Source: Chiloscyllium plagiosum (Eukaryota). From it: DNA of 64,000 nt. Both the position numbers and the translations under genes were made by a program. The stretch covers positions 101,072,219-101,136,218 of the forward strand of contig NC_057718.1 of NCBI RefSeq assembly GCF_004010195.1. The letters run 5' to 3'. A model generated the notes under the pieces. That model was not told where the DNA came from. It saw only the letters and a program-made list of their open reading frames with translations, and made no database searches. Below, one piece after another: positions 3,480 to 63,501 of this stretch (the stretch's first letter is position 1; every line of letters starts with the position of its first letter).

Positions 3480-3681
3480 GAGATGCTGGAGCTCAGAGTC
3501 GAGAGTCTGGTGATGGAAAAGCACAAGCAGGTCAGGCAGCATCTGAGGAGCAGGAGAATCAACATTTCGGGCATAAGCCCTTCATCATGAACCTGGTTCC
3601 TGATGAAGGGCTTATGCCCGAAACATCAATTCTTCTGCTCCTTGGATGCTGCCTGACCTGCTGTGCTTTTCCAGCATTACA
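3480..3681. mobile_element. Penelope-like fold-back insertion (family A) with hammerhead motif
   Basis: Two inverted arms. CTGATGA-AGGGC-TTAT-GCCC-GAAAC-ATC at 3600-3627. Perfect 15-bp TSD ATCACTAATTTCTAG at 3465-3479 and 3682-3696. Confidence 0.85.
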
Positions 3682-4589
3682 ATCACTAATTTCTAGTAAC
3701 TTCTAATTTTCTACTTTAACTGCACATGTTCTGGAGTGCAAACGTCATTGACAGTTTGAGAGAAGCAGTGATGACAAATACTAAGGCTTGAACCAATATC
3801 TTTAAGTTGACAAACATCTGGCCTAAAAGGCTAGCTTGTTTTTTGTGGAGTGTTAGATTTCTCTATTACAATGAAAGTTGAACTCTTTAAAGCTTGTTTA
3901 CAACATTCAAGTTTCTACTTCAGTGTCACAATAATTTGTTTTGCACTCTGTAAAATGACAATTTTCACTTCCTTTTACATTTTAATAAGCTTGCTGTGAG
4001 GATCCTTCAGTGTGATTGGCTGTCCATCCTGCTTGACATTATTACTGTTATATCTTAGCTGGAGATCCCTTGACTTGACATATGATTCAAAATGTACTAA
4101 TGAAATCAGACCGTATGCTATGCTTCAGAGAATTATAGACTAACGCTGTACAGAATGTGACAGAAAGTAGTTCTGCAGGCTCTGTGATAGAATTATCCAA
4201 TTACTCTCATTCCCCTCCTCTTTATCCATAACCCTCCTCTTTTCCTCCAAGAATTTATCTCATTCCCTTTTGAAAATTATGGTAGAATTTGCTTTCACCA
4301 TCCACTGCAACCGTGGATTCCAGATCACAATAACTCACTAGGTTAAAAAAAACCCATTTGCCAATATCTTTTGCTTTGATTAAAGGTGACTGTGGTTAGA
4401 CATAAGGTTCACTTTTGTAAACAAAAGAATCTTTTATTCCAGTGTCTAGGCGTGATCCAATTTATATTATTACATTTTTTTTTCAAAAACATCACTCATG
4501 TTTGGCAATGATTCTGCTCTGCAAAAGCTGATCACTTCTCCATGTCTTTTGAGTGAAGCAGTGGAGTAGAATTTGCTGTCGTGAAGAAG

Positions 4590-4695
4590 GATTCTGAGGA
4601 AGGGTCACTAGACTCGGAGCATTAACTCTGCTTTTTCTCCACAGATGCTGCCAGACCTGCTGTGTTTTTCCAGCAATTTCTGTTTCTCTTGCTGT
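4590..4695 (+). mobile_element. Penelope-like 3' tail fragment (family B)
   Basis: ctgaggaagggtcactagactcg...gatgctgccagacctgctgtgtttttccagcaatttctg, the same tail as the GIY-YIG-linked copy at 52275-52775. Confidence 0.7.
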
Positions 4696-4697
4696 AG

Positions 4698-5150
4698 TTT
4701 GATTTGATTTGATTTATTATTGTCACATGCGCCTCGGTACAGTGAGAAGTTTTGTTTTGTGTGCAGTACAGGCAGACCACACTGTACAAAGTGCATTCGG
4801 GTAATAGAACAGAGCCAGGAATATAATGTTACAGCTGCAGAGAGGATGCACAGAGAGTGAGATCAACATTAAAGTTAAAATTTGACAGAACCATTCAGAA
4901 GTCTAATACCAGTGGGGAAGAAGCTTTTCTTGAATCTATTTGTACGTGTTTACAAACTTTTATATGTTCTGCCTGACAGGAGAAGGTGGAAGACAGTATA
5001 ACTGGGGTGGGAGGGGTCTATGAATAGGGGTCTTGCTTCCCTGAGGCAGTGGGAAGTATAGATGGATGGGCTGTGTTCATGACTCTCTGTAGTTTCTTGT
5101 GGTCTTGGAAAGAACAATTGCCAAACCACGCTATGATACATCCAGATGTT
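4698..5150 (-). mobile_element. Rex1/Babar-type LINE 3' end
   Basis: The minus strand encodes DPSHPSYTVFHLLLSGRTYKSL (Rex1/Babar C-terminal DPSHP...LLPSGRRYRS motif) and ends in catgtgacaataataaatcaaatc. Confidence 0.75.
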
Positions 5151-5523
5151 GCAGTGATGTTGGTGAATTTGCCTTTCCATTGGGTCAGTTTTCAAGCACA
5201 GGAGGTGGGGGTTATTGTTATCCTGTTGGCTCAGATTTGGTTGTTTTTTTCTTTTTTCAATCCAGGGATTTTGGCCTGTTGCGAATCCCACTGGTTTTAA
5301 TCGCTTAGTGATTAGCAACTGTGCCGTCAGTTACCTGGGGATTACGTCTCCTGAAACCTGCCGTTCTCTCTCTCTTGTCTGCTGGTAGACATTCCATAAA
5401 ACCTATTTGCCAAGCTCTCGGTCCCAATTTCCTTATGTGACCCAGTGATCTGATTTAGTGTGACGTTGCTCCTATGAAACACCTTGGGGGTTTCTCAGTA
5501 CGGTATAGGCACTACAGATATGC

Positions 5524-5750
5524 AGGCGAAAGTGAGAACTGCAGATGCTGGAGATCAGAGTCTAGATTAGAGTGGTGCTGGAAAAGCACAGCAGGTCAGG
5601 CAGCATCCGAGGAGCAGGAAAATCGACGTTTTGGGCAGGAGTCCTTCATCAGGAATGAGGTCAAAAGGCTCCTGCCCAAAACGTTGATTCTCCTGCTCCT
5701 CGGATGCTGTCTGACCTGCTGCGCTTTTCCAGCACCACTCTAACCTAGAC
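5524..5750. mobile_element. Penelope-like fold-back insertion (family A)
   Basis: Inverted arms agtctagattagagtggtgctggaaaagc... and ...gcttttccagcaccactctaacctagact. Degenerate hammerhead on the minus arm. Confidence 0.85.
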
Positions 5751-5860
5751 TGCAAGAATGCAAGTTGGTGTTGTTGCTATTACCTGTGGCAGTGTGAATG
5801 TCTGAAGCAAGCAATACTGTGCTTTAGTTTCTGATGGCCTCCATTATGCTTTGCTTTCAG

Positions 5861-5977: not shown

Positions 5978-7365
5978 GTAAGTGCTCTCATTTTATCTCA
6001 GATAGCCTGTTGAGCATGTCTATGTTCCAGTGTACTGTTTAACCACATCAGCTGCAAAGTTTCTGGCATGAAGCTGGTGCCCTCTTGGCTATTCCCAAAG
6101 AGGTTATTGTTGATGCATCTCCCTGTGTGTGGAGGACTAGAGAATTATCCTGAGGGAACCCCATTGCACTTCAGCGACTCTGAAAGTCTCAGCTTTCAGT
6201 CAAAGTTGCAGTTCCTGCAGCTGAAGGAAAGGAAGTAACTGCGGTGACAATTGTTTCGATGCTGATCTCCTTCCGAGCAATTAATTCTGGTTTTATCAGA
6301 AGTTGCTTTAAATGTGAAGGATTTTGTACAAAAGATCAATGGGTTTTGCTCTTGTTCTGTTGAAATCAAATGCTTGATCTTCCATGTTGCCTTGTGACAA
6401 TCAGAGCCTGTTACATCTACCAATGGCTTAATGCGGTAATTAGCAGCAATGCGTGGTCGTTGTAAAGCAAGCTCTCAAAGGTGAAAGTAACTTCAGGTTA
6501 AATGTTTGACCTGGAGCATATGGCAAGTATCTAATTACATTTCAAAAAGATCTTACAATTTTTGTAATGATTTCACTTTGTAAAAGCTGATTACTAACTC
6601 CATTCTTTGAGGGAAATTGCAGAGTCTGCTGTATGTGATACTGGTGAAAGTATTGAATCTGTTCTAGAACTCAGCGTTATTGGAAGTCTGTTGCTGCAAA
6701 CCTGCTCGTTCTCAGCTTCTCTTGGAGTTGGCTTCTTTGAACATAATGCAAATGATTGAATGGAGGAAGCAGCAATCTTAGACCTTGGACCATCTTATAG
6801 AAACTGGCTTGGACAATATTGAGGATGGCCTCTGCTTCTGGAGACATATATCGGAAGATAAGAAGCTCAGAGACCTTTAACTCTCATGAAATTATCTAGT
6901 AGCTGGCTGCCAGTCTGAGATCTTTTTTATATTTTGTAATATCGGTGGTTGGTGCTGGGCGAGAGTTTGAGCTGATGATCTTGTGTAGAATTTGGTCAGC
7001 CATGTTGTTTGAAAAACAAATGTTGGTGTTGTGTTGTCACAACTTGCTACTTTGCCACTTCTCAGGCCACTTTTTTTTCTGTCACTGTGTGAGGATGAAA
7101 GAATCAGGGCTGTCATGAACTGTAAATGTGAGCAATGAGTTGCTATGATATTCGCTCTAAATAGCATGGGACGGGCTGTGGTCACCTGCTCGTGCTTTCT
7201 CTCAACATTCCCCCCCCTCTTGGTGCAAACAAACTCGATTAAATTGGGATGCAACATACTTGGAAGAGGTTTCTTAGACTTGGATGAAATGCTTCCTCCA
7301 AGCTTCAAAGGGTCTGAGCTGCTGTTCAGAAACAGATGCATTGATTGCCAATTGCGCAAGTTGGA

Positions 7366-7462
7366 GATAAAACAAAAATTGCAGATGCTGGAATCCAAAA
7401 TAGACAGGCAGGAGGCTGGAACAACACAGCAGGCCAGGCAGAATTAGAAGGTGGAGAAGTTG
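7366..7462 (-). mobile_element. Penelope-like 3' tail fragment (family D)
   Basis: gcagatgctggaatccaaaatagacaggcaggaggctggaacaacacagcaggccaggca matches the terminus of the element at 32810-33320. Confidence 0.65.
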
Positions 7463-12579: not shown

Positions 12580-12925
12580 ATTTGCATTCAATTACAGGAT
12601 CTGGGCATCATTGGCCATTTATTGCCCATCCCTAATTGCCCAGGGGAATTAAGAGTCAACCACATTGCGCTGGGTCTGGAGTCACATGCATCCCAGACCA
12701 GGTAAAGATGGCAGTTTCCTTCCCTAAAGGACATTAGTGAACCAGACAGGCTTTTTTCTTCTGACGATGGCGTCATGGTCATCTTTAGACTCTTAATTCC
12801 AGATTTTGTGTATTGAATTCAAATTTTACCATCTGCCGTAACAGGGTTTGAACCCAGGTCACTCGAACATTACCTGGGTCTCTGGATTAACAATTCAGTG
12901 ATAATACCACAAGGCTATTGCCTCC
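12580..12925 (-). mobile_element. tRNA-derived SINE (local family S2)
   Basis: Reverse complement of the copy at 16712-17062, with B box gggttcaaaccc on the minus strand. Confidence 0.8.
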
Positions 12926-13282: not shown

Positions 13283-13890
13283 GGAAACAAAAGCAGAAAA
13301 CGCTGGAGAAACTCAGCAGGTGTGGCAGTATCTGTGGAGAGAAAGCTAATGTATCGCGTCCAGTGACCCTGCATCTGTTCTGGTCTCCTTATTTTGAGGA
13401 AGGATGTGGAAGCAGTTGAGAGGAGATTCATCAGATTGATTCCAGAGATGAAAGGACTGTCATATGAGGGGCGGTTGACTAGCATAGACTTGTACTCACT
13501 GGAGTTAAAAAAAAAAGGGGTCGGTGGGGACCTGACTGAGGGATATAAAATGCTAAAGGTGACCAGGTGATCCCCCTTGTGGAACAGTCTTGATCAAGAG
13601 GGCACGCATATTGAGTGAGAAGAGAGAGGTTCAGAACTGGCATGAGGAGAAACAACTCCTCTCCAAGGGTAGTGAATCTGTGGAACTCACTGTCCCAGAA
13701 TTCAACGGAGGCACAATTAATCAACAGATTCAAGAAGGAAATAGATCAGTTTCTGATGAAGAGTGGAATAAGGGGAGCAGGCCGGTGAGTGGAGTTCTGA
13801 CCAGGATAAAATCAGCCATGATTATGTTAAGTGGTGGAACAGGCTCGAAGGGCTGAATTGCCTACTCCCACTCCTAATTTCCTATGTTTC
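13283..13890. mobile_element. PLE family-B tail (minus, 13283-13370) abutting an older CR1 3' fragment (plus, 13375-13890)
   Basis: gctggagaaactcagcagg..., then ttctggtctccttat...ggctcgaagggctgaattgcctactcc. Confidence 0.7.
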
Positions 13891-17539: not shown

Positions 17540-18060
17540 GGATAGTGAGGATCGCAGGCACTGGAAAGTCAGCGTTAATAAAATGCGGAGCTGGAAAAAG
17601 CGCAGCAGGAGATCGACATCTCGGGCAGGACCCTTCATCAGGATCGGGGGGGAGAGGGAAAGGAGCTGAGAAATAAATAGAAGAGGGGCGGCCTGGGGAA
17701 AAGGTAGGTGGGGATGGCGATAGGCAGAATGCAGGTAGGAGGTGATTGTGATTGGTCAGTGGGAATGGTAGAGTGGATTGGTGGGAAGGAAGATGGACAG
17801 GATAGGTCAGGTCAGGTCAAGGGGCTGGGGTGGAGGGGGTGGGCTGGACCTGGGATGAGTTTGGGGGTGGGGAGATTTGGAAGCTGGTGATTTCTATACC
17901 TACCTTTCCCCCAGGCCCACCCCTCCCCCTATTTATTTCTCCGCCCCCCTTACCCCTTCCCCAGTCCTGATGAAGGGTCCTGCCTGAGATGTTGACTGTC
18001 CCGCTCCTCTGATGCTGCTCGACCTGCTGTGCTTTTTCCAGTTCCACAATTTATCAACTC
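17540..18060. mobile_element. Long Penelope-like fold-back (3' UTR/pLTR arms) nested in a family-B tail
   Basis: Minus arm 17540-17890 reaches the ORF end (TSFQISP). Plus arm 17895-18060 has TATTTAT (17930), then CAGTC-CTGATGA-AGGGT-CCT-GCCT-GAGA-TGTT-GACTG. Confidence 0.8.
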
Positions 18061-20244: not shown

Positions 20245-21335
20245 ACCCTGAAAAGAGTGCAAAGGAAATTTATTAGAATAATACCACCATGGGAGATTTT
20301 AGATAGGAGAAAGTGAGGAATGCAAATGCTGGAGATCAGAGCTGAAAAATGTGTTGCTGGAAAAGCGCAGCAGGTCAGGCAGCATCCAAGGAGCAGGAGA
20401 ATCGACGTTTCTGGCATAAGCCCTTCTTCAGGAATGCCCGAAACGTTGATTCTCCTGCTCCTTGGATGCTGCCTGACCTGCTGCGCTTTTCCAGCAACAC
20501 ATTTTTCAGCTCTCGATTTTTAGATAGGAGGAAAGATTAGAGAAATTGGGCTTATTTTCCTTGGATCAGCAAAAGGTAAGAGGTGAGCTTATTGAGGTGT
20601 TCTAAACTATGAGCAATTTTGACAGGGTAAAGAAGGATATTCTGTTTCCAGTGGTTAGTATGGCAGTAACTGAGATTGTCAACAAGAGAATGTGGAGTGA
20701 GGTGAGGAAAGACTTCTTTACTCAGAGAGAGTTGTTAGGATTTGGAACGTGCTTCCTAGGAGAGTCATGGAGGCAGATTCCACAGGATGTTTCAAACAGG
20801 AACTGGACATATATTTGATAGTGATAAATTTAAAGGGTACAGAGATAGGTCTGGAGAATGGGACCAGCTGTGAAACTGTTTCAGGCATGATGGGTCAAAT
20901 GGCCTCTCTCTGTACTGTAAAAGTGTTATAGTAATGAACAGGTTGAACCTATACACATTGAAGTTTAAAAGATTAAGAGTGATCTTATTGAAATGTATAA
21001 AACCCTGAGGGGATTTCACAAGATTAATGGTAGGGGGCTGTTTCCCCTAGAACTAGGGGGCACAGTTCCAAAGTTATGGGTATCCCTTTTAAGACTGAAA
21101 CAAAAAGTAATTTCTACTCTATGGGATTCTCTGTACCAGTGAGCAAAGGACACTGGGTTATTGAATCCAGGCTAAGTTAGGCCAATTTTCCATTGATCAG
21201 AGTGTTGCGAGTTGGAGTGAGGGGTGCGGTCAGACAAATAATGAAATTGAGACTACAATCAGATCACGATCTTATTGAATGGTGGAGTGGCTTGAGGGTG
21301 GAATGGCACATTCCTGCGTCTCATTCTTGTGCTCT
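20245..21335 (+). mobile_element. Two adjacent old CR1 3' fragments; the first is interrupted by a PLE fold-back
   Basis: Degenerate RGDLIE-like DNA at about 20580 and 20978, each followed by a CR1 3' UTR. Confidence 0.7.
20305..20514. mobile_element. Penelope-like fold-back insertion (family A)
   Basis: Inverted arms. TSD gattttagataggag / gatttttagataggag, whose last bases (ggag) are also the element terminus. Confidence 0.85.
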
Positions 21336-22637: not shown

Positions 22638-22745
22638 AGTTCTGAAGAAAGGTCACTGAACCAGAAATGTTAATTCTGCTTCTCTCTCCACAGACACTGC
22701 CCAGAACTGCAGAGATTCTCCAGCAGTTTTTCTGTTTTTGCTTCA
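22638..22745 (+). mobile_element. PLE family-B tail with degenerate hammerhead
   Basis: agttctgaagaaaggtcactgaaccagaaatgttaatt. Confidence 0.7.
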
Positions 22746-23169: not shown

Positions 23170-23350
23170 CATGATTTGGAGATGCTGGTGTTGGACTGGG
23201 GTGTACAAAGTTAAAAATCACACAACACCAGGTTATAGTCCAACAGGTTTAATTGGAAGCACTAGCTTTCGGAGTGTCGCTCCTTCATCCACCTGATTGG
23301 AGACAACCACCTGATGAAGGAGCAGTGCTCTGAAAGCTAGTGCTTCCAAT
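23170..23350. mobile_element. Penelope-like fold-back insertion (family C) with hammerhead
   Basis: Inverted arms. CAC-CTGATGA-A-GGAGC-AGT-GCTCT-GAAA-GC-TA-GTG at 23308-23342. Confidence 0.8.
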
Positions 23351-23672
23351 TTAATGAAGAAAGTTTATGTGGAGCAGTTGGATGTTACCAATGTTAACAA
23401 CTGTATTTGCTGATAAAATTTGGCCTTTGTCTCTTTTGTAATTAAAAACAATGTGCATAGCGCATGAAAGAAAGGGCAGATCCCCGTCCATATCCGAAGT
23501 GTCTTTGGTTCCTTGGAAATAAACTCAAGGGTGAGTCAGTAGCTGGATTCCACCTCCAACTGCTGGCTGCAGGAATGGCCCAGACCACTCTGCAGAAACA
23601 TTCCCAGACTGACCAACAAACCGTGAGCCGGTTGGTAGCACTATCCTCTGAGTCAGATGGTCCCATACTTCA

Positions 23673-23893
23673 GGGAGAAAGTGAGGCCTGCAGATGCTGG
23701 AGATCAGAGCTGGAAATGTGTTGCTGGAAAAGCACAGCAGGTCAGGCAGCATCCAGGGAGCAGGAGAATTGATGTTTCGGGCATAAGCCCTTCTTCAGGA
23801 TTTTCCTGAAGAAGGGCTTATGCCCGAAACGTCGATTCTCCTGTTCCCTGGATGCTGCCTGACCTGCTGCGCTTTTCCAGCAACACATTTCCA
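23673..23893. mobile_element. Penelope-like fold-back insertion (family A), young
   Basis: Near-perfect inverted arms. 14-bp TSD GGTCCCATACTTCA (23659-23672) / GGTCCCATGCTTCA (23894-23907). Confidence 0.9.
23803..23837 (+). ncRNA. Minimal type-I hammerhead ribozyme motif (intact core)
   Basis: CTGAAGA (23806-23812), extra A, GGGC-TTAT-GCCC, GAAAC, GTC (23831-23833). Stem III is reduced to palindromic ACGT. Activity is not shown. Confidence 0.7.
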
Positions 23894-24009
23894 GGTCCCA
23901 TGCTTCACACCACCTGGGGCCTTGTGCACAAACAAGACAATGAATGCGGTGAATGTGGGTCAGAGAAGAACATACAACTGGACAGCATAGGTCCACTATG
24001 TCTATGTCA

Positions 24010-27245: not shown

Positions 27246-27475
27246 AAACAGAAATTGCTGGAGAAACTCTGCAGGTCTGGCAACAGCATTGGAGAGAGAA
27301 AGCAGAGTTAACATTTTGTGTCCGGTGACCCTTCTTCAGAACACCAGATCACTGGACTCGAAACATTCATTCCGCTTTCTCTCCACTGCTGCTGCCAGAC
27401 TTGCTGAGTTTCTCAAGCAATGTCTGTTTTTGTTTCAGATTTCCAGCATCCTCAGTTCTTTGTTTTATTTTAATG
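27246..27475. mobile_element. Penelope-like fold-back insertion (family B)
   Basis: aacagaaattgctggagaaactc... and ...gagtttctcaagcaatgtctgttt inverted arms meeting at the hammerhead. Confidence 0.8.
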
Positions 27476-32809: not shown

Positions 32810-33320
32810 AGAAATAGACAAGAAGGAGGCTGGAAGAACACAGCAGGCCAGGCAACCTCAGGCGGTGGAAAAGTCAATGTTTTGGGTGTACCCTTCTTCA
32901 GGACTCAGGGTGGGGGTAGGGGAAGCTGCAGATGAAAAGATGGGGAGGAAGGTTTATGGGTGGGGAGAGGGGGAGTGTGGTGAGGTAGTGATGGGTATAT
33001 ACAGGTGATAGGTATGACCTGGTTGGTTGATGTGAAGAATGAATCCGGTTGGTAGCTGGAAGAAGGGTCATTCAGAGGAATGGAAGTGGGGGGGAGGGGG
33101 CAGGGCTGGAAAAGGAGTAAGGGGATGGGGAGGGAGGTTACTTGAAATTGGAGAACTCAAATGTTGAGTCCTCTGGGCTGTAGGCTGCCCAGGCAGAAGA
33201 TGAAGTTTTGTTCCCCCAGTTTACAGTCTGATTCGCCGAGGCAATGGAGGAGACTGAGGATGGACATGTCGGAGAGGGAGTGGGAAGGGGAATTAAAATG
33301 TGAAGTGACTAGGAGGTCAG
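32810..33320 (-). mobile_element. Penelope-like element 3' end with GIY-YIG C-terminus (family D)
   Basis: The minus strand reads HFNSPSHSLSDMSILSLLHC...KLGEQNFIFCLGSLQPRGLNI then EFSNFK* after a 1-bp shift. The 3' UTR follows with AGTC-CTGAAGA-AGGGT-AC-ACCC-AAAAC-ATT-GACT. Confidence 0.85.
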
Positions 33321-38035: not shown

Positions 38036-38037
38036 TA

Positions 38038-38460
38038 ACAGCAGATGCTGAAGATCTGAAACAAAAACAGAAATTTCTGGGGAAACTCGGCGGGTCTGGC
38101 AGCATCTGTGGGAAAAAAATTGAGAATGTAGTGCTGGAAAAGGCAGCGTCTGAGGAGCAGGACAATTGACGTTTCCAGTATAAGTCTTTCACCATTTCCT
38201 GATGAAGGGCTTATGCCCGAAACATCGATTCTCCTGCTCCTCAGGTGCTGCCTGACCTGCTGTGCTTTTCCAGCACTCCACTCTTGACTCTGATCTCCAG
38301 TATCTGCCGTCCTTACTTTTTCTGTGGAGAAAAAGCAGAGTTAACGTTTTGAGTCTGATGACATTTCTTAAGAACTGGACTCAAAACGCTAACTCCGCTT
38401 TCTCTCTGGACAGTTGCTGCCAGACCTGCTAGGTTTCTCCAGCAATTTCTGTTTTTGTTC
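38038..38460. mobile_element. PLE family-B fold-back containing a nested family-A fold-back (about 38120-38320)
   Basis: The inner element is flanked by TCTGTGGGAAAAAA / TCTGTGGAGAAAAA. Hammerhead cctgatgaagggcttatgcccgaaacatcg at about 38198-38228. Confidence 0.8.
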
Positions 38461-39409
38461 AAGACTTTCTACTTTGCTGCTCCAGCATTTGTGATTTGTC
38501 ACATACTGAACTCTTGTTGACTCCAACCTTTGGAAATTTACCCAACTTATTTAGTCGTGAATTGGTGGTAAGTGCCATGTTTGGTAACTGGCAGTGCCTG
38601 TGGTAAATAATGCCTGCAATGTGATGTGTTGGCATTGAACAAAGCCTCGCTAGACCCTCTGAGCTTTCCCAGAAATTTCTGTTTTTGTTTCTGAATTCCA
38701 GTGTCCGCAGTTCTTTGTTTTTTTTATTATTGTTCAGCTGTAGAAATTATTACACGGTCCTGAATCATAGAGATTGCACCATCAACAAGTTGAACACCTT
38801 CGGAATTGTGGTGAGGGAAGTATTTGTTGATTGAATTTGTGGAAATTGACCCACAAGAAGAAAGCAATTGCAATGATTTTTGGACAGCATTGTGCTCTTT
38901 GTCAAACAATGTGATCAAAGTGCTGAAATGTGACACAAGAGACCAAGCTGAACTTGTAACACTCAAGTCTTTGTGAGTCTTAATGCCAGGCTTTATGTTA
39001 GGTGTGAAGTAGACCATGCAAAGATAAATCGTTTAGCGTAACACACACAAAATATCTTTGGCCCATCTTAAACTGAAAGTATTATTTTCTTTGGTAGACA
39101 AAATAGTCTTACAAAAGGCATGACTCAATTTCTTTCAGAGCTACAAGATGCATTGATTTAACCCCGATTACCTTTTGTAATCCAGGTTTCAGCTGCCTAA
39201 GGGGGAACTGATGTTGTACTCTCACGTACCAGAAGACCATTGTGTTCAGGTATGTTTCCTGAAGAAGTAATTTCGAAACTTCAACACTGCCTTTTCTCCA
39301 CAGATACTGCCAGACCTGTTGAGTTTCTCCAGGAATTTCTGTTCTTGTTTCAGATTTCCAACATCTGCAGTTCCTCGTTTGACGTTTTCACTTATGCTGG
39401 GTAGTGGAC

Positions 39410-40368: not shown

Positions 40369-41971
40369 ACAGTGAAAGGCTTTTGCCCGAAACATTGATT
40401 TTCCTGCTCCTCAGATGCCGCCTGACCTGCTGTGCTTTTCCAGCATCACTCTAATCTTGACTCAGGTCTGTGGCAATGTCAAGTCGCTATTGTCTTACAG
40501 AACCATTGACTGCTGTCTCATTAGAGAGTGAGGCAACTGGTGGTGGTTTAGCCTGTGGCCCACCACACCTCAGGCAAGGGGAGAGGTTGAGAAGGAGAGC
40601 ACTTCATAATAACGTCAGGTGGTGGTGGGAATTGAACCCACATATTGACATCACGCTGCTTCGCAAACCAACCTTCCAGCCAACTGAGCTAAACCGCAGC
40701 CCAACTGTGGGAATGAGAATTGTGCACTGTGCTCTGGCACTTTCATGTCTTTGTCAAACAGTCTCTGCTATAGTTTGTAGAAGACTGAGCTGGTGTTGAT
40801 GATTTGGTGTTGGACCCCAGTACTGGAAAGTGGGACTGGAGTAGATTTAGTACGCTTTTGGCAACAAAGCTTTGATGGGCCGAAGGGACTCGCATGTACT
40901 GTATGATTCTGCATGACTCCTCAATCCTGCTAAGGTTAAAAAGGCTAACTTACCTGAGGATCTGACTTCTCCCGAAATGTATTGCAAAGGGAGAATGCTG
41001 GAGAAACTCAGCAAGTCCGGCAGCATCTGTGGAGAGAGATTCAGAGTTAACGTTTTGAGCCCAATCTTTACAGAGCTGTAAAGTTGTGTATTTTTTATGT
41101 TGGAGGCAGAGATGGGGAGGAAGGAGTAAGCGGAACTGATTGTAAGGCTGTCCAGAGCAAAAGATAAAGGAGTTGCACGTGGTAGTGAAGGAGGGATAGG
41201 GATGCAAAATGGGTGTGAGTGAAGATATGAAAATGGATAAAGTGGTTCTACTCTGTGGAGTTAGTTCCCAAAACCTGTGATCAATGACCAGCCAGGAAGA
41301 ATTCTAGTATAACAAAGCAAGAAAACGTGTCCTTTTTTCTTTTGAAAATGAAAGTTCTCCACTCTTTTGGGCTCGGTTGCATTGATAAAAGCATATTTGA
41401 CTGTGCTTGGTGGATACAGGTGAGAGAGAGAGAGAGAAAGCGAGCGAGCCAGGGGCTGAGAGCATGTGCTCATCTTGAAGCCCCAGCCTCTTGTGTTACT
41501 GTGACATAAGTATATGTTTAAAACAAGCTCAAGATTGGCACTGCTTTCCTATTGATCTGCTGCTACTTCACAGCTGTCATAATGACAGCTACTACACTTC
41601 AAGAACAATTCTCTGTATTAAGTGCTTTGAAATGTTTCGATGAAGTGACAAAATGCGATGTTAATGCGAGTGTTTCTGTTAGTCTCAGAAAACTGTGGCA
41701 ACTCTTTTTTTCTCTCTCTCTGTTTGCACATGCAGCATTTATTCCTGGGCAGAGATACTTTTTTTTTGCATTTTGAGTTCAACATCCAATTTTCTGGATC
41801 GACGAGATACATTGGCCAGAATGTCCATTTTCTTTGACATCTGCTATCACATCAAGCAAACCTCCTTGTAATTGAAGAGGGGTGGGCAGGTGTGAAGATA
41901 CAATAGCCACATTTCTTGTTTTCTTCTCAGTTTCCACACTTAAACTGACTTGCTTGAAAAGAATGTACAAA

Positions 41972-42800
41972 TATTGTGTACAGTTTTGGTCTCCTTATCT
42001 GTGGAAGAAGGTTCAAAAGTGACATAGGTTTAGCAGAAGGAAAATCAGAACTTGCTGGAAAAGCTCAGCAGGTGTGGCAACGTCTGCGGAGAGAAATCGG
42101 AGTTAACATTTTGGCCAAGTGACTTTTCCTCAAAAGTTTTGCAGACTGATTACTGAAATGGGGGTGAAAGTGAGGACAGCAGATACTGGCGATCTGAGTC
42201 TAGATTAGAGTGGTGCTGGAAAAGCACAGCAGGTGCTTCCTAATGAAGGGCTTTTTCCGAAACATCGATTTTCCTGCTCCTCGGATGCTGCCTGACCTGC
42301 TGTGCTTTTCCAGCACCATTCTAATCTAGACTCTTGAAATGTGGGGACTGGCATACAGAAAGAGACTCGATCAATTAGGATGACATTCTGATAGGAGTTT
42401 AGAGGGAGGCAAGGGAATCTCTTATAACATTCTAGACAACATAATCACAGGAAGGATGTTCCTGATGATCAGGAACTCGGAGACCAGGGCAGTCCAGAAC
42501 TAGATGTCACGGTCTAACGATACAGGGTAGGCCATTTAGGACCCCGAGATGAGGAGAAATTTCTTCATCCAGAGAGTGGTGGGCCTGTGGAATTCTCTGC
42601 CACAGAAAGCAGTTGTGGCCAAAACATTGAATGCTTTCAAGGAGTTAGAAATCATCCTTAGAGCTAAAGGGATCATGGGTGTAGAGAGAAATTGAGAACA
42701 GGGCTCTGAGTTGGACGATCAGCCATGATCATATTGAACAGTGAAACAGGCTCGAAGGGCTGAATGGCCTACTCCAGCTTCTGTTTTCTGCATTACGGTA
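41972..42800 (+). mobile_element. CR1 3' fragment interrupted by PLE pieces (family B 42035-42135, family-A fold-back 42163-42333)
   Basis: tattgtgtacagttttggtctcctta...; inner inverted arms with approximate TSD tgaaatggggg / tgaaatgtgggg. Confidence 0.75.
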
Positions 42801-43740: not shown

Positions 43741-43838
43741 AGACCCTTTATTCCTGATGAAGGGCTTTTGCCCGAAACGTCGATTTTGCTGCTCGTCGGA
43801 TGCTGCCTGAATTGCTGTGCTCTTCCAGCACCACTGAT
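43741..43838 (+). mobile_element. Single-arm PLE insertion with intact hammerhead core
   Basis: 12-bp TSD CCAGAGGACCAT (43729-43740 and 43839-43850). CTGATGA-A-GGGC-TTTT-GCCC-GAAAC-GTC at 43754-43781. Confidence 0.85.
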
Positions 43839-44091
43839 CCAGAGGACCATTGGGCTGCTCGCTCACTTAGAGAGAGGAGAGAGAGAGACAGTTGGTGGTA
43901 GGTTAACCTGAGAGTATCCAAACCTCAGACGAGGGGAGAGGCTGGGAAGGAGAGTTCTGCATGGTAACCTCAATCTTTACAGGACTGTAAGTGGTTTGGT
44001 TAGCTCAATTGACTGGATGGCTGGTTTCTGTTGCAATGTGATGCCAACAGTGAGGGTTCAATTCCTGCAACTACTGAGAAATTTGGTACAG

Positions 44092-44826: not shown

Positions 44827-45052
44827 ATGCATGACTTGAATTATGTGATGAGGTTAATTTAGGTTATTTGGTCAGCATGGACGAGTTGGAATGAAGGACC
44901 TGTTTCTGTGTTGTATAACTCTATGACTTGCATTTGTGCGGTCATATCTTGCAAGCAGTCTGGATGAATAATTTTTAATATTTCTCCATCAGAGTGAATT
45001 TGTGGGTTTGATATAAATGCAACCTTTTTCAGTCAAACACCAAACTTGCAAG

Positions 45053-45220
45053 AGCACAGCAATTCAGGCAGCATCAAGGAGCTTCAGCAAAATCATCAAT
45101 GAAGGGCTTTTGCCCGAAACGTCGATTTTGCTGAAGCTCCTCGATGCTGCCTGAATTGCTGTGCTCTTCCAGCACCATTGATCCAGAATCTGGTTTCCAG
45201 CATCTGCAGTCATTGTTTTT
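45053..45220. mobile_element. Penelope-like fold-back insertion (family A variant)
   Basis: Perfect 14-bp TSD ACCAAACTTGCAAG (45039-45052 and 45221-45234) overlapping both element ends. Confidence 0.9.
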
Positions 45221-45872
45221 ACCAAACTTGCAAGGGCAGGCAAGAGAAACACTCACACCCTACTGAGCCGCAGGAAGACGTTACTGAGGCCACGTTGTAT
45301 TTTGTGTACAACTTGCGGTTCTCATCTTTTCTAATATTTCCTTTTTGTAATAGTCTCTCTTTTGTTTTGTTCAAGGATGTAAGCAGAGTGTCACACTGTG
45401 AATATGGTAATCAGTGTATTTTATGCTGTCTTAATGGCATGGAGTGTAAAATGCTTTAATCAGCTCCAGATCCCTTATCCCAGCTTACAACACACTTGAA
45501 AGTTCATTATCAAAGCTTCTCCATAAAAAAGGCTGTAAATAATATTCTGTGAAAAGCTCATTAAAATGCAAGCCATTATGGTAGTCACTTACGAGCTTGG
45601 AGATAAAGGGTTCAATATGTTGTAGCAATACAGAGCCAGAGATTTCCTTATGCCTTGTCGTACAGGCTGTTTCTTACAAAATGTTCCCGGGTCCTCAAGG
45701 ATCAGGATGTAACTAAGGGTTTGCTTTGTGTCTACCAGAGCACTTTTTGAATTAACATTACTCTGTCTTCCAACAGCTCATGTGATGGCAGGGTCCCTGA
45801 TGTAGTACTGGCAATGAATTTGTAGATGACTCTTAGAATTACAGGAATAGTTCCAGACATTGAGGATCTTCA

Positions 45873-47161: not shown

Positions 47162-49078
47162 AAAAAAACTATTGTAAAGGTAAGCTTGATTAGTAACTGT
47201 ACAAGTCATTCATGTATTGACCCAGATTACATGGTCACAGTCCTCAAAGAATACAATGTGACAGGCTTCACAACGGAAAAGGACAATGCAGCTAGAGACA
47301 TTCGGGTGGAGAAGACATTGACACAGAGAGAGGAGGTAATGATGGATTTAGCAGCTTTAAAACTGGATAAACCCACAGACCCAGGTGAGATATATCCCAG
47401 GCTGTTGAGGGAGCAGGTATCATAAAGTTGTACAGCATGGAAACAGACCCTTCAATTGATTCCAAGATGGTGGCTTTGGTGAGGTTGGTCCAGTGGTGAG
47501 TGATGGTTACTTTGGCGTTGATGGGTCCGATACGGGCAGCTGTGAGGGGCAGGACTCAAGGCAGTGGCATAAGCAGTGGCTCAGCAATGGTGACACCACG
47601 GCATTGGTGAGCCCAGCTCAAGTCTGATGGCAGCAGCAGCATAGGTGATCTGGACATTTTCACCCTTCTGTTTCTGCCCTTTAATTTTTGTTCTTGTTAT
47701 TAATTCCAACTATCGATGATGCCAGAGAGTGGCAACTCTGTTCACGTTTCACTGTTCTCCTGTACTTGGGTACATGTGACAATAATCTTCTACTCCCCAT
47801 GATGTAATCATAGAAGCATAGAACTTTGCAGCCCAGAAGGAGGTCACTTGGCCCATCCAATCTGTACTGGCTCCCGAAAGAGCTACCCAACCAGTCCCTC
47901 TCTTCAACCCTCCCTAAGTAGCCCTCTAACTTTGTGCCTTTCAAATATGTATCCAAAACTTTCAGAGCGATGCCACTGGACCCCCCCCACCGACATGAGC
48001 AGAGGCAGCTTCCAACCGTCAGGAGACAGCATCAGCCATGCTGCATGTTACAGCTGTGCCAATGAGGTGGGTTCTCCAATGTTGCATGGTGCCCACCTCG
48101 ATTTGAATGGGCATGGGCTTATCACGAATTGTCACTTCCTTGGCCGAACCTCAGACCCTGATCTCTCACCACGAGGCTCTTACAAGAAAATAATAGCAAC
48201 TATTCTTTTAGCCAGATTGGTTTCTAAAATTGATGACTCTCATCACTTGCGTTTATTGTGGTACAGCTGGTATCTCTAAGTTCAAGGGCAGTCACCCTTT
48301 GAAGATAAAGATGGTTTGGAAATGTACATGAGTTCAAAGAGGTTTCAGGAAAATAATAAAGCAAAAATGTGAGCATGAAGATTGGAACTCCTTCTCATAA
48401 TGCTCTTCTGAAAGTTCTGTCAAATTAGCATGGTCCAAATTGATAGAGAATGGAGAAATGGGCATACATCCAAGAATCTTGTATCTGTGACAAAGACAGA
48501 GCACTTGCAGCTAAATAACCATCTGTGCCTAGTGTTCTTGAGCATGCAGCATTTAACTGCAATATGTGACCAGAAGTCACAAAGTTTTAAGAGCAGTAAG
48601 TAATGTATGCCGAGTTGGGGAAGCACAAAGGAATAGACCATCTGCCTCTTTGTTTTCCTCTGCTTGATATTCACCAGCATTGGAGCATTGAATGCCGGCT
48701 TATTAAAAAGTAATCAAAAAGACTCAAGGAATGTTCGCCTAGGGATGGATTTCAAAATTGAGTGAGAGGTGCTTCCGTCACACGCAGTCTCTGGTAGGTC
48801 CCAGCTTCACTGCTGCGTTCAGTTTTGGATACCGGGGAGCAGAGATTTTCCCTATGGGTTTCAGAACCAGTCAGGGCTCAGCAGTGGCAAATACAGAGAA
48901 TGCTGGAGAAACTCAGCAGATCCAGCAATGTCTGCAGAGAGAGAAGCAGAGTTAATGTTTTGAGTCTGGTGTGATGCGAAACCTTATCCATCAGTTTGCT
49001 TTCCATTCTTGACACATGGGGACTTATTTCTCTTAAAAATACTATTGATCTCCAACCCCCTGAGATTTCTACTAGAAT

Positions 49079-49428: not shown

Positions 49429-50602
49429 TTCCCTCTTGCCAGTCCCCTATTTTTATTGCTTGACCATTGGCTAAGCACTGAGGCTCTGGAACTTCCTCAG
49501 CTGTCCTTGAGTCATTCCTCAAAGCTGGACTGTTTGACAAAGTTTCAGGCCACTTATTGTATTTTGTCCTTCCCTGGCCAAGTGTGGTTTCTCTTGCCAC
49601 ATTTTGTTGCATTAAAATGGAGGCAATATGGGACTGGGACACAGTGTTAGACAGTGAGCACAGGAGAGCGATGGGGGAAACAAGACTTGGTGTTAGTCTG
49701 AACACATGGAGCAGAGGTGTTATTTTGAAACCATGCTAAGAAGCAGTGTATGACACTTTACTCAAATGGGTGGACAGCAATGATTAATGTGGGCCTAGGG
49801 TTAATGTGCAATGGTACATTTAACTCGCTGTGGTTGTCCTACATTTAACCAACCCACATAAAATGAACTTTAAAAAAAATGTCAACACCCATTAATGCCA
49901 TTAACCTCTGTACATCCTTTCAGCGATATCAAGGAATGAAGGCTGATGTGGCATTCTATCTGGAACATTATTTGCCAGAATTTCACTTAAAAGTGTCTGA
50001 TTTTCTCTGTCATAGTTGTTTTAATATGAAATCTCCAATTCTTCATGAAACCTCAGGTCAAACCTTGTTTTTAAAGTATTGTTCATTAACAAGAATATAC
50101 ATGACAAAATGGCGGCAGAGCTTTGGGCAACAAGAGCTCCAACCTTCTAGCAGAGTCTTCTCAAGTCAGGTCACAGCTACATTGCAGCATAGCTCAGAGG
50201 CTTATCTGCATATTCATTAAACCCTGTTTGTACAATAGTCATAACAATTACAATATCTGTAAGGACTCGTTTCTAATGAAATGATTAACTAATTTCAGCA
50301 TTGCTATAGTAAGGACTTAACCTGGGTTCGATTGATCATTTTGAAAAGACTGTACCTTTTTTCATTTTTCCGTATTTTTAATTGTGGGCAGAAATTGGAA
50401 AATAGCTGCTTTGAAAACCAAGGACTGCTGAAAGATTACTCGAAAGGTTTAAAAGGAAGTAACCTGACACTTATTGTTTACATAGCGACTTCTTCAAACA
50501 GGCATTGAAGTGTAGTTTGCAAATGAGTGAATGGGTGCAAATATAGATTCAGCCAGCAACAAGTGGCTGATAGGTCTGCAGCCGGGTGACTATGATCACT
50601 TA

Positions 50603-50742
50603 GGAGAAAGTGAGGACTGCAGGTGCTGGAGATCAAAGTTGAGAGTGTGGTGCAGCACCCAAGGAGTAGGAGAAATGGCGTTTTGGGCATAAGCCCTTCA
50701 GGACATTCCTGACTTACTGTGCTTTGCCAGCACCACACTCTC
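50603..50742. mobile_element. Degenerate PLE fold-back (family A)
   Basis: ggagaaagtgaggactgcaggtgctgg... and ...ccagcaccacactctcga. Confidence 0.75.
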
Positions 50743-50959
50743 GACTATGTTTAATAGCAAGATCTTTTGCTTGCCAACAATTACATGATTGGTTAGCTGA
50801 ACACCATGGGGCTGTGAATTAGATTGCGAGTTGGAATCAAATCTCCACTAGCTCAGAAACTCTGCAATATAGACTACTTTAAGTCTGATGAAAGCAAGTT
50901 TATATTTCCTTGAATTGCTGTTCATTGTGGTATTTAGTTAATAAATCTGAGACTATATA

Positions 50960-52274: not shown

Positions 52275-52775
52275 CTCAGGCCTACTGCAGCAAAGCTGAC
52301 CACAAGCTGAAAGAATGATACCTCATCTTCCGCTTGAGGCCCCTACGCCCTTCAGGATTCCACATCAAGTTTAACAATTATAGGACATGAACACCACCTT
52401 CCATGTCTGTGGCTCACACCCACACCCCAGGTCCTGTCATGAAGTGGATTGTTGTCTGTACAGCCAACCTGTTTTCACCCACTTATAGTCCCCATTATCA
52501 CCTATTGAGCTTCTCTTCTTGCCTGGCTTACAATCAGCAATCCCTTTGACTGTTCACCTCATGTTTTTTTCTCTCTCTTTTGGTGCTCTGTTTCTACCTA
52601 CTCTTCCTCCCTCCCTGCCCTCCAACCTCCGTCATCAATATAAATACCACCTTTTTCTAGCTGCTATCATTTCTGAAGAAAGGTCGCTGGACCTGAAACG
52701 TTTACTCTATTTCTCTGTCCACCTGCGCTGCCAGATCTGCTGAGTTTCTCGAACAATTTCTGTTTCTGTTTCTGG
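52275..52775 (+). mobile_element. Penelope-like element 3' end with GIY-YIG C-terminus (parent of family B)
   Basis: KLKE*YLIFRLRPLRPSGFHIKFNNYRT*, then 3' UTR, TATAAAT (52639-52645), hammerhead CTGAAGA-A-AGGT-CGCTGG-ACCT-GAAAC-GTT (52673-52702) and family-B tail. Confidence 0.85.
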
Positions 52776-55870: not shown

Positions 55871-56228
55871 CATGTATGGAATGAGCTGCCAGAGGAAATG
55901 GTGGAGGCTGGTACAATTACAACATTTAAAAGGCATCTAGATGAGTATATGAATAGGAAGGGTTTAGAGGGATATGAGGTAAAGACAAGGACTGCAGATG
56001 CTGGATACCAGAGTCTAGATTAGAGTGGTGCTGGAAAAGCACAGCAGGTCAGGCAGCATCCAAGGTGCAGGATGCTGCCTGCCCTGCTGTGTTTTTCCAG
56101 CACCACTCTAATCTAGAGGGATATGAGCCAAGTGCTGGCAAATGGGACTAGATTAATTTAGGATATCTGGTCTGCGTGGATGAGTTGGACTGAAGGGTCT
56201 GTTTCTGTGCTGAATATCTCTGTGACTT
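55871..56228 (+). mobile_element. CR1 3' end interrupted by a PLE fold-back (55979-56113)
   Basis: Perfect 14-bp TSD TAGAGGGATATGAG (55965-55978 and 56114-56127). Confidence 0.9.
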
Positions 56229-56430
56229 CGAGGTGCTGGTGTTGGACTGGGGTGGACAAAGTTAGGAATCACACAACACCAACTTATAATCCAACAGGTT
56301 TGTTTGGAAACATTAGCTTTCGGAGCGCTGTTCCTTTATCAGGTGGACAACTACCTGATGAAGGAGCAGAGCTTCGAAAGCTAAGTTTCCAAATAAACCT
56401 GTTGGACTATACCCTGGTGTTGTGTGATCC
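56229..56430. mobile_element. Penelope-like fold-back insertion (family C) with hammerhead
   Basis: Inverted arms. CTGATGA-A-GGAGC-AGA-GCTTC-GAAA-GC-TA at 56355-56383. Confidence 0.8.
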
Positions 56431-56772
56431 TAGAAAGAGGTAGCGATTGTCTTCTTTATTTACCTTGCTCTGAATCCACCTCGATGTAGCAGTGTATTTC
56501 TTTCTTGAATGCAATGCACTGTTCTACATGTTTCAAGCTCGCTACCCGCCGGTATTGTAGCTGACCCTTCTGAAGCTCCATTGCTTGCTATTCTTTCCAC
56601 AATCCGACTTATTTTGGTCTCTATTATCCTAAATGTATAAATTTCCCATTTGCATGAGTGGTACAGTCTGCCTTACCTGAAGTGATGCATAGAATCCCTA
56701 CAATGCAGATAGAGGCCATTTGGCTCAATATGTCTGTACCAGCTCTCCAAAGAGCATCTCACCCAAACTTAC

Positions 56773-58062: not shown

Positions 58063-58065
58063 CTC

Positions 58066-60560: not shown

Positions 60561-60626
60561 GTACTTGTATTTCTTTGTGAGTGTACAGATCAGTATTCCC
60601 AGGCTGGATACCAGTTGGTTCCCACT

Positions 60627-60745
60627 TAGAGTCATAGAGTCATACAGCACGGAAACAGACCTTTGGTCCAACCAGTACGTGCCAAATATAACCCCAAACT
60701 AAGCTAGTCCCAACTGCCTGCTCCTAGCCCAAGTCCCACCAAACC
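60627..60745 (-). mobile_element. CR1 3' terminal fragment
   Basis: tagagtcatagagtcatacagcacggaaacagacc. Confidence 0.8.
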
Positions 60746-62367
60746 CACATCAGCCTGTAAAGACAGCAAAGTATTTCTGTCCTGGCCCTCTGCAGTTTAG
60801 TACCAGATCTTTTCTGAAGTCCAGGAATGCCTGAATTCCTGAAGTAGGGAGTCTCTGGTCCCGCACCTACTTGTTCAATATGTCCAAGCATTCTGTAGTG
60901 GATGATCCAGCATTAAGATTGGGCCTGGATCTGTTGGAATCCAGAAAGCTCTGTCTGAAAGATTGATGGAAACCGATTTGCAAGGGGATTGAGGAGGGTG
61001 ACACTTTTACATTTTGGGGGTTAAAGAGTGGGGGTAATGGACCCCGTACAATAGCACTACCTGAAAACATGCACGGCACAAGTGGCCTCCTTGAGTGGTG
61101 TAAATGATGTTATGAACCAGTGTATTCGACTGCAGGCTTAGCAATTGCAATCTCCACCCATCCTGCAACACAATCCGACTCCACTGACGGATCCTGAGCT
61201 CCACATTTTGTGCTATCAATATGGAACTCTGTTAAGCCATACACTGTCATTTGGAAACATTGTGCACTGGGTGAGCAATCGAATGAGATGTTATCTCGCT
61301 AGGAACATACAAAGTAGAAGAAACACATTACAGCATGACGCCTAGTGGTGAGGCGATTACAAAAGTTATTGGAATTTGTACATTACATTCTCTATCACTC
61401 AAGGCCGTACAACGTGAAATTCTTTGTGCATCCCACTCAAAGGTTGGCAGTAGCCTTAATCTGGTTGCTAGAATCCTTCCAGGTCACTGAATACATTGCT
61501 GACAACTTTCCCTTTCATCTTTATTGTGATGAACAAGGCCAGTGTCTCCGTCACTGAGCGCAATAACAATTATATTGCTAGGATTTTAAAGGATATTTGT
61601 CACAAAGCGTGCAGCAGTAGGGTCCTCACTTCAGTAATCTGTTTCTCAGAAGTGGATTTGAAGAATTTTCATTCAGTTCTCAGGCTGTGGGTGTTACCAT
61701 TAAGATTGGCAATTATTGCCTGTCGTAAGATATGACTGCAACTCGCACCTGGTTCTGCTCAGATCTCCTTTCGATAAATGCCAATCCCACTCATTATTCC
61801 TTGGATAGATTTTAAAAATATTTTTGTCAAGTTGTAAAAACTTTGTTCACGGGATGTGGGTGGGACAGCACTTATTTTAAATCATTTGAAAAGGGTGTGT
61901 CAAAGGATGACCACAAAGTCTTGGTGGAAGGGGCTCGATTTTGAGCAACAGCGATGGTTTATTGCATAACAGTAACAGCACGTTAGAGAGGAGTATCTTC
62001 TAAGAGATATTTGTCTCTTTCTCTCTCTCTGCCTCCTTGCACCTATTCGCTCACTCCTTTTCTCTCCACCCCATCTCAGTCATCGTCCTTTTTTCTCTCC
62101 ATAGATGCTGCCAGACCTGCTGAGTTTCTGTTTTTGTGTGTGTTTGCCTTCTGAAAGATGCCAAGTTAACCAAAGCGACCTAATTGTTAACAGTAAGACT
62201 GACAGACCGCAGCAGCGCAAACTGAACTGACTAGATCTTCCCAGAGAGGGTTGCTTATATCCTGGTGGGTGTCTTCAGAGTTAACACTTTCAGGCCAACA
62301 CTCTTACGTAATAGTGTCCATCCCTAGCTACTCATGATTATCTTGTTGAACCGGAACCAGTACAACT

Positions 62368-62646
62368 GGGCGGCACGGTAACTCAGTGGTTAGCACGGCT
62401 GCCTCATAGCACCAGGGACCCAGGTTCAATATCAGCCTTGAGTGACTGACTGTGTGGAGTGGGGTTTCCTCCAGGCATTCCGGTTTCCTCCCACAGTCCA
62501 AAGAAGTGTAAAGTCACATGGATTTGTTATTGGAAATGCAGGATTACAGGGATTGTGGGAGAGCGGTCTGGGTGGGATGCTCTGCGGAGGGTTGGTGTGG
62601 AATCAATGGGCCGAATGGCCTGCACCACACTGTTGGCATTCTATGA
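62368..62646 (+). mobile_element. HE1-type V-SINE (internally deleted)
   Basis: gggcggcacggtaactcagtggttagc head. Confidence 0.85.
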
Positions 62647-63320
62647 ACTGAGTGAGGCCAGCCCCAGAGCTCTGTCAATGATAGGGGTTTGGGACTGGAA
62701 TCGAACATTAGCCGTGACCAGGTTTCCTCCCCTAAAGGAGCCAGGTGGTTTCAATAGTACTGGCAACTCATCTTCCTTCTCAGCTGCTCCGAGGTTGCGC
62801 GCACACTGATTGGCATGCCACGCGTTGACTTCAGCTTTGTAAGTTGCTGATGTGCATTAACCTCACAGGTCCAGGTACTGAAGGAAAAAATTACAAAGCT
62901 CATGGTCACTTCACTGATGACAGTCTTTCTATTTTTGGACTTCTTTGTCAGATTTAAATATATATTTTATGAAGACACTGCACATTACAAAGTGTATTCA
63001 GGAAGTGTGCATTGATGCAGGCAAGTTTTTTTTAGCAGAGATGTCTTGGGAGCAGTGCGGGATTTCATATTGAGGTCACTCATTTGATCTTGGTCTTTAG
63101 GTCCAATACATTGGGAAATGGAAGTTCCTGATAAATGAGTATCAAGTGTCTCATAATTAATGGATGGATTACACTGATTTGCTGCGAATTGTGAAAAAGT
63201 GGTTTGCGTGACTGTAATGCCTCTGATATGAAGCACTACTTGATAACACCTCAGTTTCCCTCCTTGGTCCCCATCGGTGTGGGTGAGAAAGACTCTCATG
63301 CCTTTGACCATTGATTTCTG

Positions 63321-63501
63321 TGTCAAAAAGTGTTGCGCTGGAAAAACACAGCAGGTCAGGCAGCATCCGAGGAGCAGGAGAATCGACATTTCGGGCATAA
63401 GCCTGTTGACTGTCCTGCTCCTCGGATGCAGTCTGACCTGCCATAACAGTGCCGCACTTTTCGACTCTGATCTCCAGCGTCTGCAGTGCCCACTCCCTCT
63501 C
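63321..63501. mobile_element. PLE fold-back insertion (family A, older)
   Basis: Inverted arms; degenerate TSD accattgatttctg / accattattctctg. Confidence 0.75.

Follow-up and report, generated by a model that had tools for sequence, protein, structure and literature searches.

What are the short repeats that crowd a 64,000-nucleotide stretch of Chiloscyllium plagiosum DNA (contig NC_057718.1, positions 101,072,219 to 101,136,218; hereafter the window, position 1 being its first letter) and that carry the core of a hammerhead ribozyme? A first-pass annotation took them for a separate system of short ribozyme-bearing families derived from Penelope. The evidence fits instead the 5′-truncated ends of ordinary Penelope-like elements (PLEs), inserted in the published architecture of an inverted copy plus a tail. 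We put at roughly 80% the probability that the repeats are 5′-truncated insertions of several endonuclease-bearing PLEs, families A/E, B and D being Neptune-like and family C belonging to another lineage.

Hammerhead motifs in the window

The motif was searched for with the descriptor CTGANGA-N-stem II (at least 4 pairs)-GAAA-NN-TH, against a background of 40 dinucleotide shuffles of the window. The strict descriptor matched 8 times, against a shuffle mean of 0.05, and with one mismatch allowed it matched 12 times, against 0.73. The recurrence of CTGANGA-A-stem II-GAAA-NN-TH, on which the first-pass annotation was built, is thus far above chance. Similarity searches yielded 52 arm segments, which came to 45 distinct arms once short, duplicate and misplaced rows were dropped (48 rows of the 5′-end table minus 3). 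A recognizable hammerhead is present in 24 of these arms, 10 of which keep all 11 core bases. The majority sequences of families A, B and C carry the invariant core; the single D arm that holds a core, and both E arms, have one core change. The extra A between positions 9 and 10.1 occurs in all 24 arms, although it also served as a tie-break in anchoring, and the closing pair G10.1-C11.1 in 18. Every sequence feature that could be tested agrees with the minimal type I hammerhead of PLEs, as first proposed.

Stem III, described earlier as a 4-nucleotide palindrome, has that form in family C, where AGCT (GC at 15.2-16.2) is kept in all four arms. In the other families ACGT, with its CG, is intact in just 6 of 20 arms and the remaining 14 have CA or TG, presumably through CpG decay. 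In family A, stem I has just two Watson-Crick pairs, and 9 of 11 arms have T.T at pair 3. Among the 24 arms, only 23311 (family C) combines an intact core, the palindrome and three stem I pairs. Single hammerheads fold no better than shuffles (z of -0.19 to -1.82 for six motifs), nor do three whole arms (z of -0.97 to -1.32). The 32 matches that Rfam gave at E up to 10, all sub-threshold and mostly microRNA hairpins, included no hammerhead family, and the exact family A pattern had no match in metagenome contigs.

Families and their stems

Coordinates and letters given earlier at 23806, 43754, 52673, 23308-23311 and 17962 proved correct. The core as then written breaks down in three of the copies cited for it, 17967 (GAGA for GAAA), 32901 (AAAA) and 27339 (AAAA), the last of which, in family B, also has a G.A mismatch in stem II. 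That the stems differ between families holds for stem II pair 3 (G-C, changed to A-T in family C), stem II pair 4 (C-G in A, T-A in B and D, G-C in C), stem I pair 1 (C-G, but T-A in B) and stem I pair 2 (T-A, but A-T in C); the stem III dinucleotide also differs by family, CG versus GC. Two of the quoted stems are, in contrast, single-copy changes. AGGT/ACCT, ascribed to family B, has an A-T first pair in 1 of 6 B arms and G-C in 3, and the B stems had been merged from two copies, stem II from one and stem I from another, 52673 itself lacking stem I. GCTCT, ascribed to family C, occurs in 1 of 4 arms; the other 3 have G-C, and position 23331 is mostly C in family C reads and contigs. Nor are the families all "otherwise different": C stands apart, but A, B, D and the long arm E are related through a common downstream block and tail, in which C differs.

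The core stays constant across family majorities while the stems change, as an excess of core conservation would have it, but within family A it decays like the flank (9 changes from the majority in 121 core positions versus 31 in 494 flank positions, p = 0.68). A corresponding test in family B (p = 0.015) was discarded because its majority had been built without gaps.

Link to Penelope-like reading frames

Upstream, and without a change of strand, the family D copy continues into 55 codons of a reading frame (33160-33324). This segment matched 84 proteins (best E 2e-12), and the 10 matches looked up came from sharks and rays (9) and a sea urchin (1). Several of the matching proteins have weak GIY-YIG matches, and a relative, P0056, joins a reverse transcriptase (RT), a Cys linker and GIY-YIG in one protein, with whose C terminus the fragment aligns at E 9e-15. 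That order of domains is the Neptune layout (PMC8557442). Pfam gave no direct match for the fragment. A second open reading frame (ORF) end lies at 52289-52384 (E 4e-7), 289 bp before the B hammerhead 52673, and a weak match of 15 to 18 residues at 17897 (E 0.06-0.2) lies about 255 bp before the E hammerhead 17641.

In families B and D, the hammerhead sits in the pseudo-long terminal repeat (pLTR), in sense, after the endonuclease; that of the A lineage is probably placed likewise, as judged from long arm E. The Penelope origin proposed earlier is therefore borne out for B and D by their adjoining GIY-YIG ORF ends, weakly indicated for the A lineage through its long arm, and without such a link in the window for C. 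Assignment to a Neptune-type clade is putative and follows from similarity, the truncated window copies lacking the RT and Cys linker. When the shark-type endonuclease alignment was run against viral and prokaryote contigs, it gave 245 and 109 pattern matches, none of which was confirmed. Two ray proteins annotated as neuromedin-U receptor 1 and NYAP1-like (P0011, P0030) carry a PLE endonuclease end and are probably gene models that absorbed a repeat.

Conservation in outside loci

Outside loci were sought in metagenome contigs with an alignment of related endonuclease ends, and the best 80 of 173 were analyzed, 71 with at least 250 bases downstream. The same motif follows the endonuclease match in sense, 72 to 177 bases on, in 55 of the 80, with the bulge A in 54 and CG at 15.2-16.2 in 48 of the 55. 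Stem I pairs 2-4 are kept in 47 of 51 cells from 17 clusters that are not fully independent, compared with 25.4 on shuffling, where none of 10,000 trials was as high. For 38 of 46 distinct outside motifs, pairing is 95% and covariation 0.444 versus 0.141, by a statistic that ignores relatedness. A model made from those 38 alone ranked 14 A/E/B/D arms at the top in the window (E up to 0.081) and listed no C arm there at E up to 10. The motif is under selection in the outside loci and not within the window copies. This combination, a core that decays like the flank in family A and constraint outside, is predicted by neutral decay of copies from constrained parents.

In one outside family (L001, L002, L015, L058), all four loci read CAGAUGA, with A at position 4 and the stems intact, possibly a natural core variant. 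Among L004-L080, homology often stops at about +52 and at +79 to +86 after C3, leaving a tail of about 30 bases as in the window.

Insertion anatomy

The 15 two-armed units are without exception head-to-head, and each bears the tail motif on exactly one arm. An inverted truncated copy with a tail of 30 to 40 bp at one end is the pattern described for PLEs (PMC8557442, PMC3846280), and two internal RT start sites have been described as bounding the tail (PMC11167929). Target duplications of 12 to 16 bp (score of at least 12) flank 7 of 28 units and 0 of 148 random control intervals. At one insertion the empty site was recovered: contigs of two related organisms join 23658 to 23894 with one duplication copy kept and the A palindrome absent. 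This architecture is read directly from the window and the contigs. Contigs of two relatives without the A palindrome begin inside a C arm (23322-23354), an insertion that looks older and shared.

The high copy number claimed earlier is supported, with 24 motif-bearing arms in 64 kb. A 901-bp stretch drew 149,913 to 198,803 contig records per DNA run at 88% likeness in three organisms, which denotes great abundance in all three and not a copy number. There are no head-to-tail hammerhead units: 0 of 7 tandem-repeat rows in the window cover a hammerhead arm, and arms are solo or head-to-head. A family A unit is nested in a family B unit at 38037-38467, and E then B (17545-18114) and B then A (42034-42334) lie side by side; these arrangements suggest insertion into or beside earlier PLE ends.

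The 5′ boundary and a possible RNA start

Relative to C3, the 5′ ends of 21 of the 45 arms fall at -5 to +3 and 10 at +4 to +24; 4 arms run at least 60 bases upstream, 3 end near the cut site (7460, 63404, 56072) and 7 later. Among the 25 arms that extend as far as the core, 21 thus halt 2 to 8 bases ahead of it or right at its edge; the references for A and C themselves reach just 3 to 4 bases upstream of C3, and visual inspection extends the match of a few arms to about -8. The boundary is some 30 bases ahead of the cut site and hence does not represent a cleavage end. Nine of the 15 contig joints shown end at 23803, three bases before C3, which may partly reflect that copy's own letters. 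Loose ends before 23803 share the ending ACTTTCCTCA in RNA (346 reads, agreement 0.54) and in DNA (406 contigs, 0.35), which indicates a longer family A parent. Two other causes of the boundary were rejected: a splice acceptor, because A and B have no AG there, and stalling of RT at the ribozyme fold, which would be expected to stop downstream of the core.

The shared ending ACTTTCCTCA completes an initiator-like TCATTCC. Among the four long arms, of which two come from one unit, 3 (2 of 3 independent units) have a TATA-like box at -34 to -38 and 2 have an initiator at -4, the patterns having been chosen post hoc. One tentative explanation, which we hold to be somewhat doubtful, takes the first base of the hammerhead as the transcription start, the initiator doubling as the 5′ strand of stem I, and run-off copying as the source of the mini-insertions; the 21 of 25 arms that halt there speak for it. 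If RT starts internally about 100 to 130 bases on, every such transcript would offer a site for priming close to its 5′ end, and its run-off copy would be a complete, "strong-stop-like" mini-insertion. Stubs that look like short interspersed elements (SINEs) or miniature inverted-repeat transposable elements (MITEs) would then arise from PLE priming itself as an inherent by-product, and no separate master would be needed. Against an RNA start here, the outside loci have a box at -30 to -40 in 0 of 55 cases and an initiator at -3 to -6 in 8 of 55, and family C has no initiator. A literature search found no paper stating such a start.

Cleavage capacity of the window copies

Minimal PLE hammerheads are reported not to cut as monomers and to cut at low levels as dimers (Cervera and de la Pena, PMC4209133), 1 of 9 Xenopus dimers was found to cut (bioRxiv 10.64898/2026.07.22.740005), and the hammerhead of an Anolis PLE cuts only with the element's protein and is dispensable for insertion in vitro (PMC11167929). 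All four palindromic units tested fold into one long hairpin on both strands. Within a head-to-head unit the second motif is antisense, and no cis dimers can form. Given the lack of tandems, the hairpins that bury the motif, the restriction of the full feature set to 23311 and the weak stem I of family A, most window copies are best read as inert. In one single-cell poly(A) RNA run (about 2% of reads), no place had many read begins or ends, though such a library cannot show cleavage.

Family C RNA reads have poly(T) loose ends at 23233 (713 reads) and 23236 (534), in the family C minus arm (23233-23253). An ATTAAA/AATAAA hexamer precedes these ends by 12 to 15 bases and a GT-rich stretch follows them; in hammerhead-sense transcripts, C arms seem to serve as polyadenylation sites.

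Weighing the explanations

From the insertion architecture we infer the following steps. The element's protein would nick the target and reverse-transcribe from one of two internal start sites, placed about 80 to 100 and 110 to 130 bases downstream of the hammerhead by analogy with an Anolis PLE in which they are known. Copying would mostly halt at the front edge of the hammerhead, giving an arm of 95 to 135 bp, and a second, inverted copy made from the other start site would give the head-to-head palindrome, with a tail on one arm and a target duplication of 12 to 16 bp. The hammerhead itself is the usual minimal ribozyme of PLEs, which selection would preserve in active parents; there, going by the literature, it may cleave as a dimer or with the element's protein. 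Inserted copies would decay neutrally, and palindromic ones fold into a long hairpin that hides the motif.

Several observations weigh against truncated PLE insertions. The T.T at pair 3 (9 of 11 arms) makes stem I weak in the commonest family, which is hard to square with strong selection on cleavage there; the ORF link of the A lineage is the match of 15 to 18 residues at E 0.06-0.2, and no family A arm proper extends upstream within the window. Family C has neither an ORF link nor a long arm there, and the model from outside loci lists none of its arms. The window holds no full-length element and no RT region, and for 21 of 28 units no duplication reaches a score of 12. Lastly, 5′ ends piled at one spot are unlike random truncation, which leaves room for dedicated short templates. 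Families A and C might, in line with what the first-pass annotation implies, be dedicated non-autonomous mini-elements, SINE-like partners of PLEs transcribed from short master copies, as the halt of 21 of 25 core-reaching arms at the front edge, the lack of any family A arm proper or C arm running upstream in the window, and the existence of subfamily variants would allow. We consider this unlikely, since ACTTTCCTCA, shared upstream in RNA and DNA, points to a longer parent, palindrome centers vary between units, and B, D and E include ORF-linked long copies (4 of 45 arms).

If the short copies were reverse transcripts of hammerhead cleavage products, in a retrozyme-like cycle, the three arms with starts no more than a few bases from the expected cut (7460, 63404, 56072) would be explained; however, 21 of 45 arms start about 30 bases upstream of it with the whole core included, the window has no tandem hammerhead units, and uncut RNA is the template in the Anolis PLE (PMC11167929), making this origin very improbable. 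Equally improbable is that the copies in the genome are kept as functional ribozymes for the processing of host transcripts. All 11 core bases are indeed kept in 10 of 24 arms and family sequences occur in poly(A) RNA reads, but those reads cross the core, palindromes bury the motif, the family A core decays like its flank, and core, palindrome and a 3-bp stem I coincide in just 1 of 24 arms. That the repeats are MITEs of a DNA transposon with long inverted repeats, and the motif incidental, we regard as the least credible proposal: near-perfect palindromes, arms of 68 to 94 bp and flanking duplications do resemble MITEs, and the risk of such a mistake was rightly noted before, but arm ends are offset by about 30 to 40 bases in 15 of 15 units, many arms are solo, duplication length varies from 12 to 16, arms run on into GIY-YIG ORF ends, and the motif covaries in outside PLE loci. 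Truncated insertions of endonuclease-bearing PLEs remain the reading that we prefer.

Features of the window

The window has no long genes; its ORFs of at least 110 codons include, on reading, worn fragments of the long interspersed element (LINE) type, and self-comparison gave 81 repeat segments. Worn LINE-type RT fragments and 3′ ends (2-211, 2139-2216, 57080-57241 and many segments of 300 to 500 bp), which we take to be CR1/L2-like, lie alongside other dispersed repeats of 300 to 350 bp (12586-12926 and eight more segments; 28727-29097 and similar). One of the latter has a tRNA-like head by eye, and these families are probably SINEs. An assembly gap of 283 N (57245-57527) lies inside a LINE fragment.

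Table 1. PLE-derived copies in the window, by family; hammerheads are given by the position of C3
Feature	Coordinates	Strand	Target duplication	Remarks
D copy	32812..33324	-		GIY-YIG ORF end (33324-33136, one frameshift), pLTR of about 235 bp, hammerhead (C3 32901, G12 changed), short end
D arm with tail	7364..7460	-		starts one base past predicted cleavage site
B copy	52289..52774	+		ORF end (52289-52384, one stop), pLTR with TATAAATA at -34 and initiator-like TCATTTC at -4, hammerhead (C3 52673, core intact, stem I lost)
B two-armed unit	38037..38467			nested A unit 38141-38322 (hammerhead 38199, +)
B two-armed unit	27246..27475			hammerhead 27339 (-, G12 changed), tail on plus arm
B solo arm	4592..4694	+		hammerhead 4594 (two core changes)
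B arm	22640..22745	+		hammerhead 22642 (core intact, stem II broken)
B arm	42034..42135	-		hammerhead 42133 (worn)
B arm	13284..13377	-		worn core
B arm with tail	39258..39385	+		stem II deleted
B arm	40996..41063	-		starts within stem II
B arm	48888..48966	-		starts within stem II
B fragment	62084..62129	+		no hammerhead
E, long two-armed A-lineage unit	17545..18060		14 bp, 17525-17538/18059-18072	minus arm: last ORF codons (17897, weak match), hammerhead 17641 (GAGA for GAAA), A-type tail; plus arm: hammerhead 17967 (GAGA for GAAA)
A palindrome	23673..23897		14 bp, 23659-23672/23894-23907	hammerheads 23798 (-), 23806 (+); tail on minus arm; site empty in two relatives
A palindrome	3481..3680		15 bp, 3465-3479/3682-3696	hammerheads 3588 (-), 3600 (+)
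A palindrome	5520..5751			hammerhead 5652 (-, G12 changed); plus arm starts within core
A palindrome	20305..20513		13 bp, 20297-20309/20518-20530	hammerhead 20431 (-)
A near-solo arm	43751..43843	+	12 bp, 43729-43740/43839-43850	hammerhead 43754, core intact
A palindrome	45047..45223		14 bp, 45039-45052/45221-45234	core box 1 partly replaced
A solo arm	40373..40469	+		starts within core
A two-armed unit	42151..42334			hammerhead 42240 (+, G5 changed)
A two-armed unit	50602..50749			worn, internal deletions
A palindrome	55976..56117		16 bp (1 mismatch), 55963-55978/56112-56127	no hammerhead
A two-armed unit	63326..63494			core box 1 in neither arm
C two-armed unit	23172..23354			hammerhead 23311 (+), tail on minus arm
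C palindrome	56228..56432			hammerheads 56342 (-, G8 changed), 56355 (+)

Relation to known systems

Both the motif and the architecture are already published; what remains useful is the scale and the sharp 5′ boundary. We found no paper on these motifs in shark genomes, though most subscription journals were not covered and the supplements of PMC4209133 and of the 2026 preprint may list some. For annotation, the result means that a very common class of repeats consists of PLE ends and not of MITEs, SINEs or microRNA hairpins. A large dated set of insertions would also let the RNA start, the origin of the inverted arm and any role of the hammerhead in transposition be tested directly.

The closest match is the minimal hammerhead of metazoan PLEs, which Cervera and de la Pena (2014, PMC4209133) report from fish, from coelacanth (about 4,000) and from Xenopus (about 9,000). 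It shares the type I core without loop 3, the extra base at 9/10.1, G10.1-C11.1, the palindrome at 15.2-16.2, the presence in a genome of several consensus families that covary, the predominance of solo motifs, attributed to truncation of PLEs, and opposite-strand pairs 100 to 700 bp apart. The window differs in its far higher density, in a stem II of 4 to 5 bp and in 5′ ends piled before stem I, and sharks are not named in the available portions of that account. Neptune units of endonuclease-bearing PLEs (Arkhipova 2013, PMC3846280; Craig 2021, PMC8557442) likewise have a C-terminal GIY-YIG, 5′ truncation, an adjacent inverted copy, head-to-head palindromes, a one-end tail of 30 to 40 bp and target duplications, but the window units are reduced to about 100 to 230 bp and their duplications measure 12 to 16 bp versus 8 to 10 in Adineta.

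Poseidon of Anolis (Frangieh 2024, PMC11167929) offers the same two internal RT starts defining the tail, a hammerhead shortly upstream and an uncut RNA template. Unlike it, A/B/D would belong to another clade and are known from their sequence, whereas the Poseidon hammerhead depends on the element's protein for cutting. Non-LTR retrozymes, which occur in one chondrichthyan genome (Li, Clavereau, Pollet, bioRxiv 10.64898/2026.07.22.740005; cf. PMC7229834), are also non-coding and pLTR-derived, with a type I hammerhead, but form head-to-tail tandems with at least two motifs. The window arms begin directly with the hammerhead and are solo or head-to-head only; because tandems are absent, these elements are not retrozymes, and because of their offset ends, variable duplications and ORF links, they are not MITEs.

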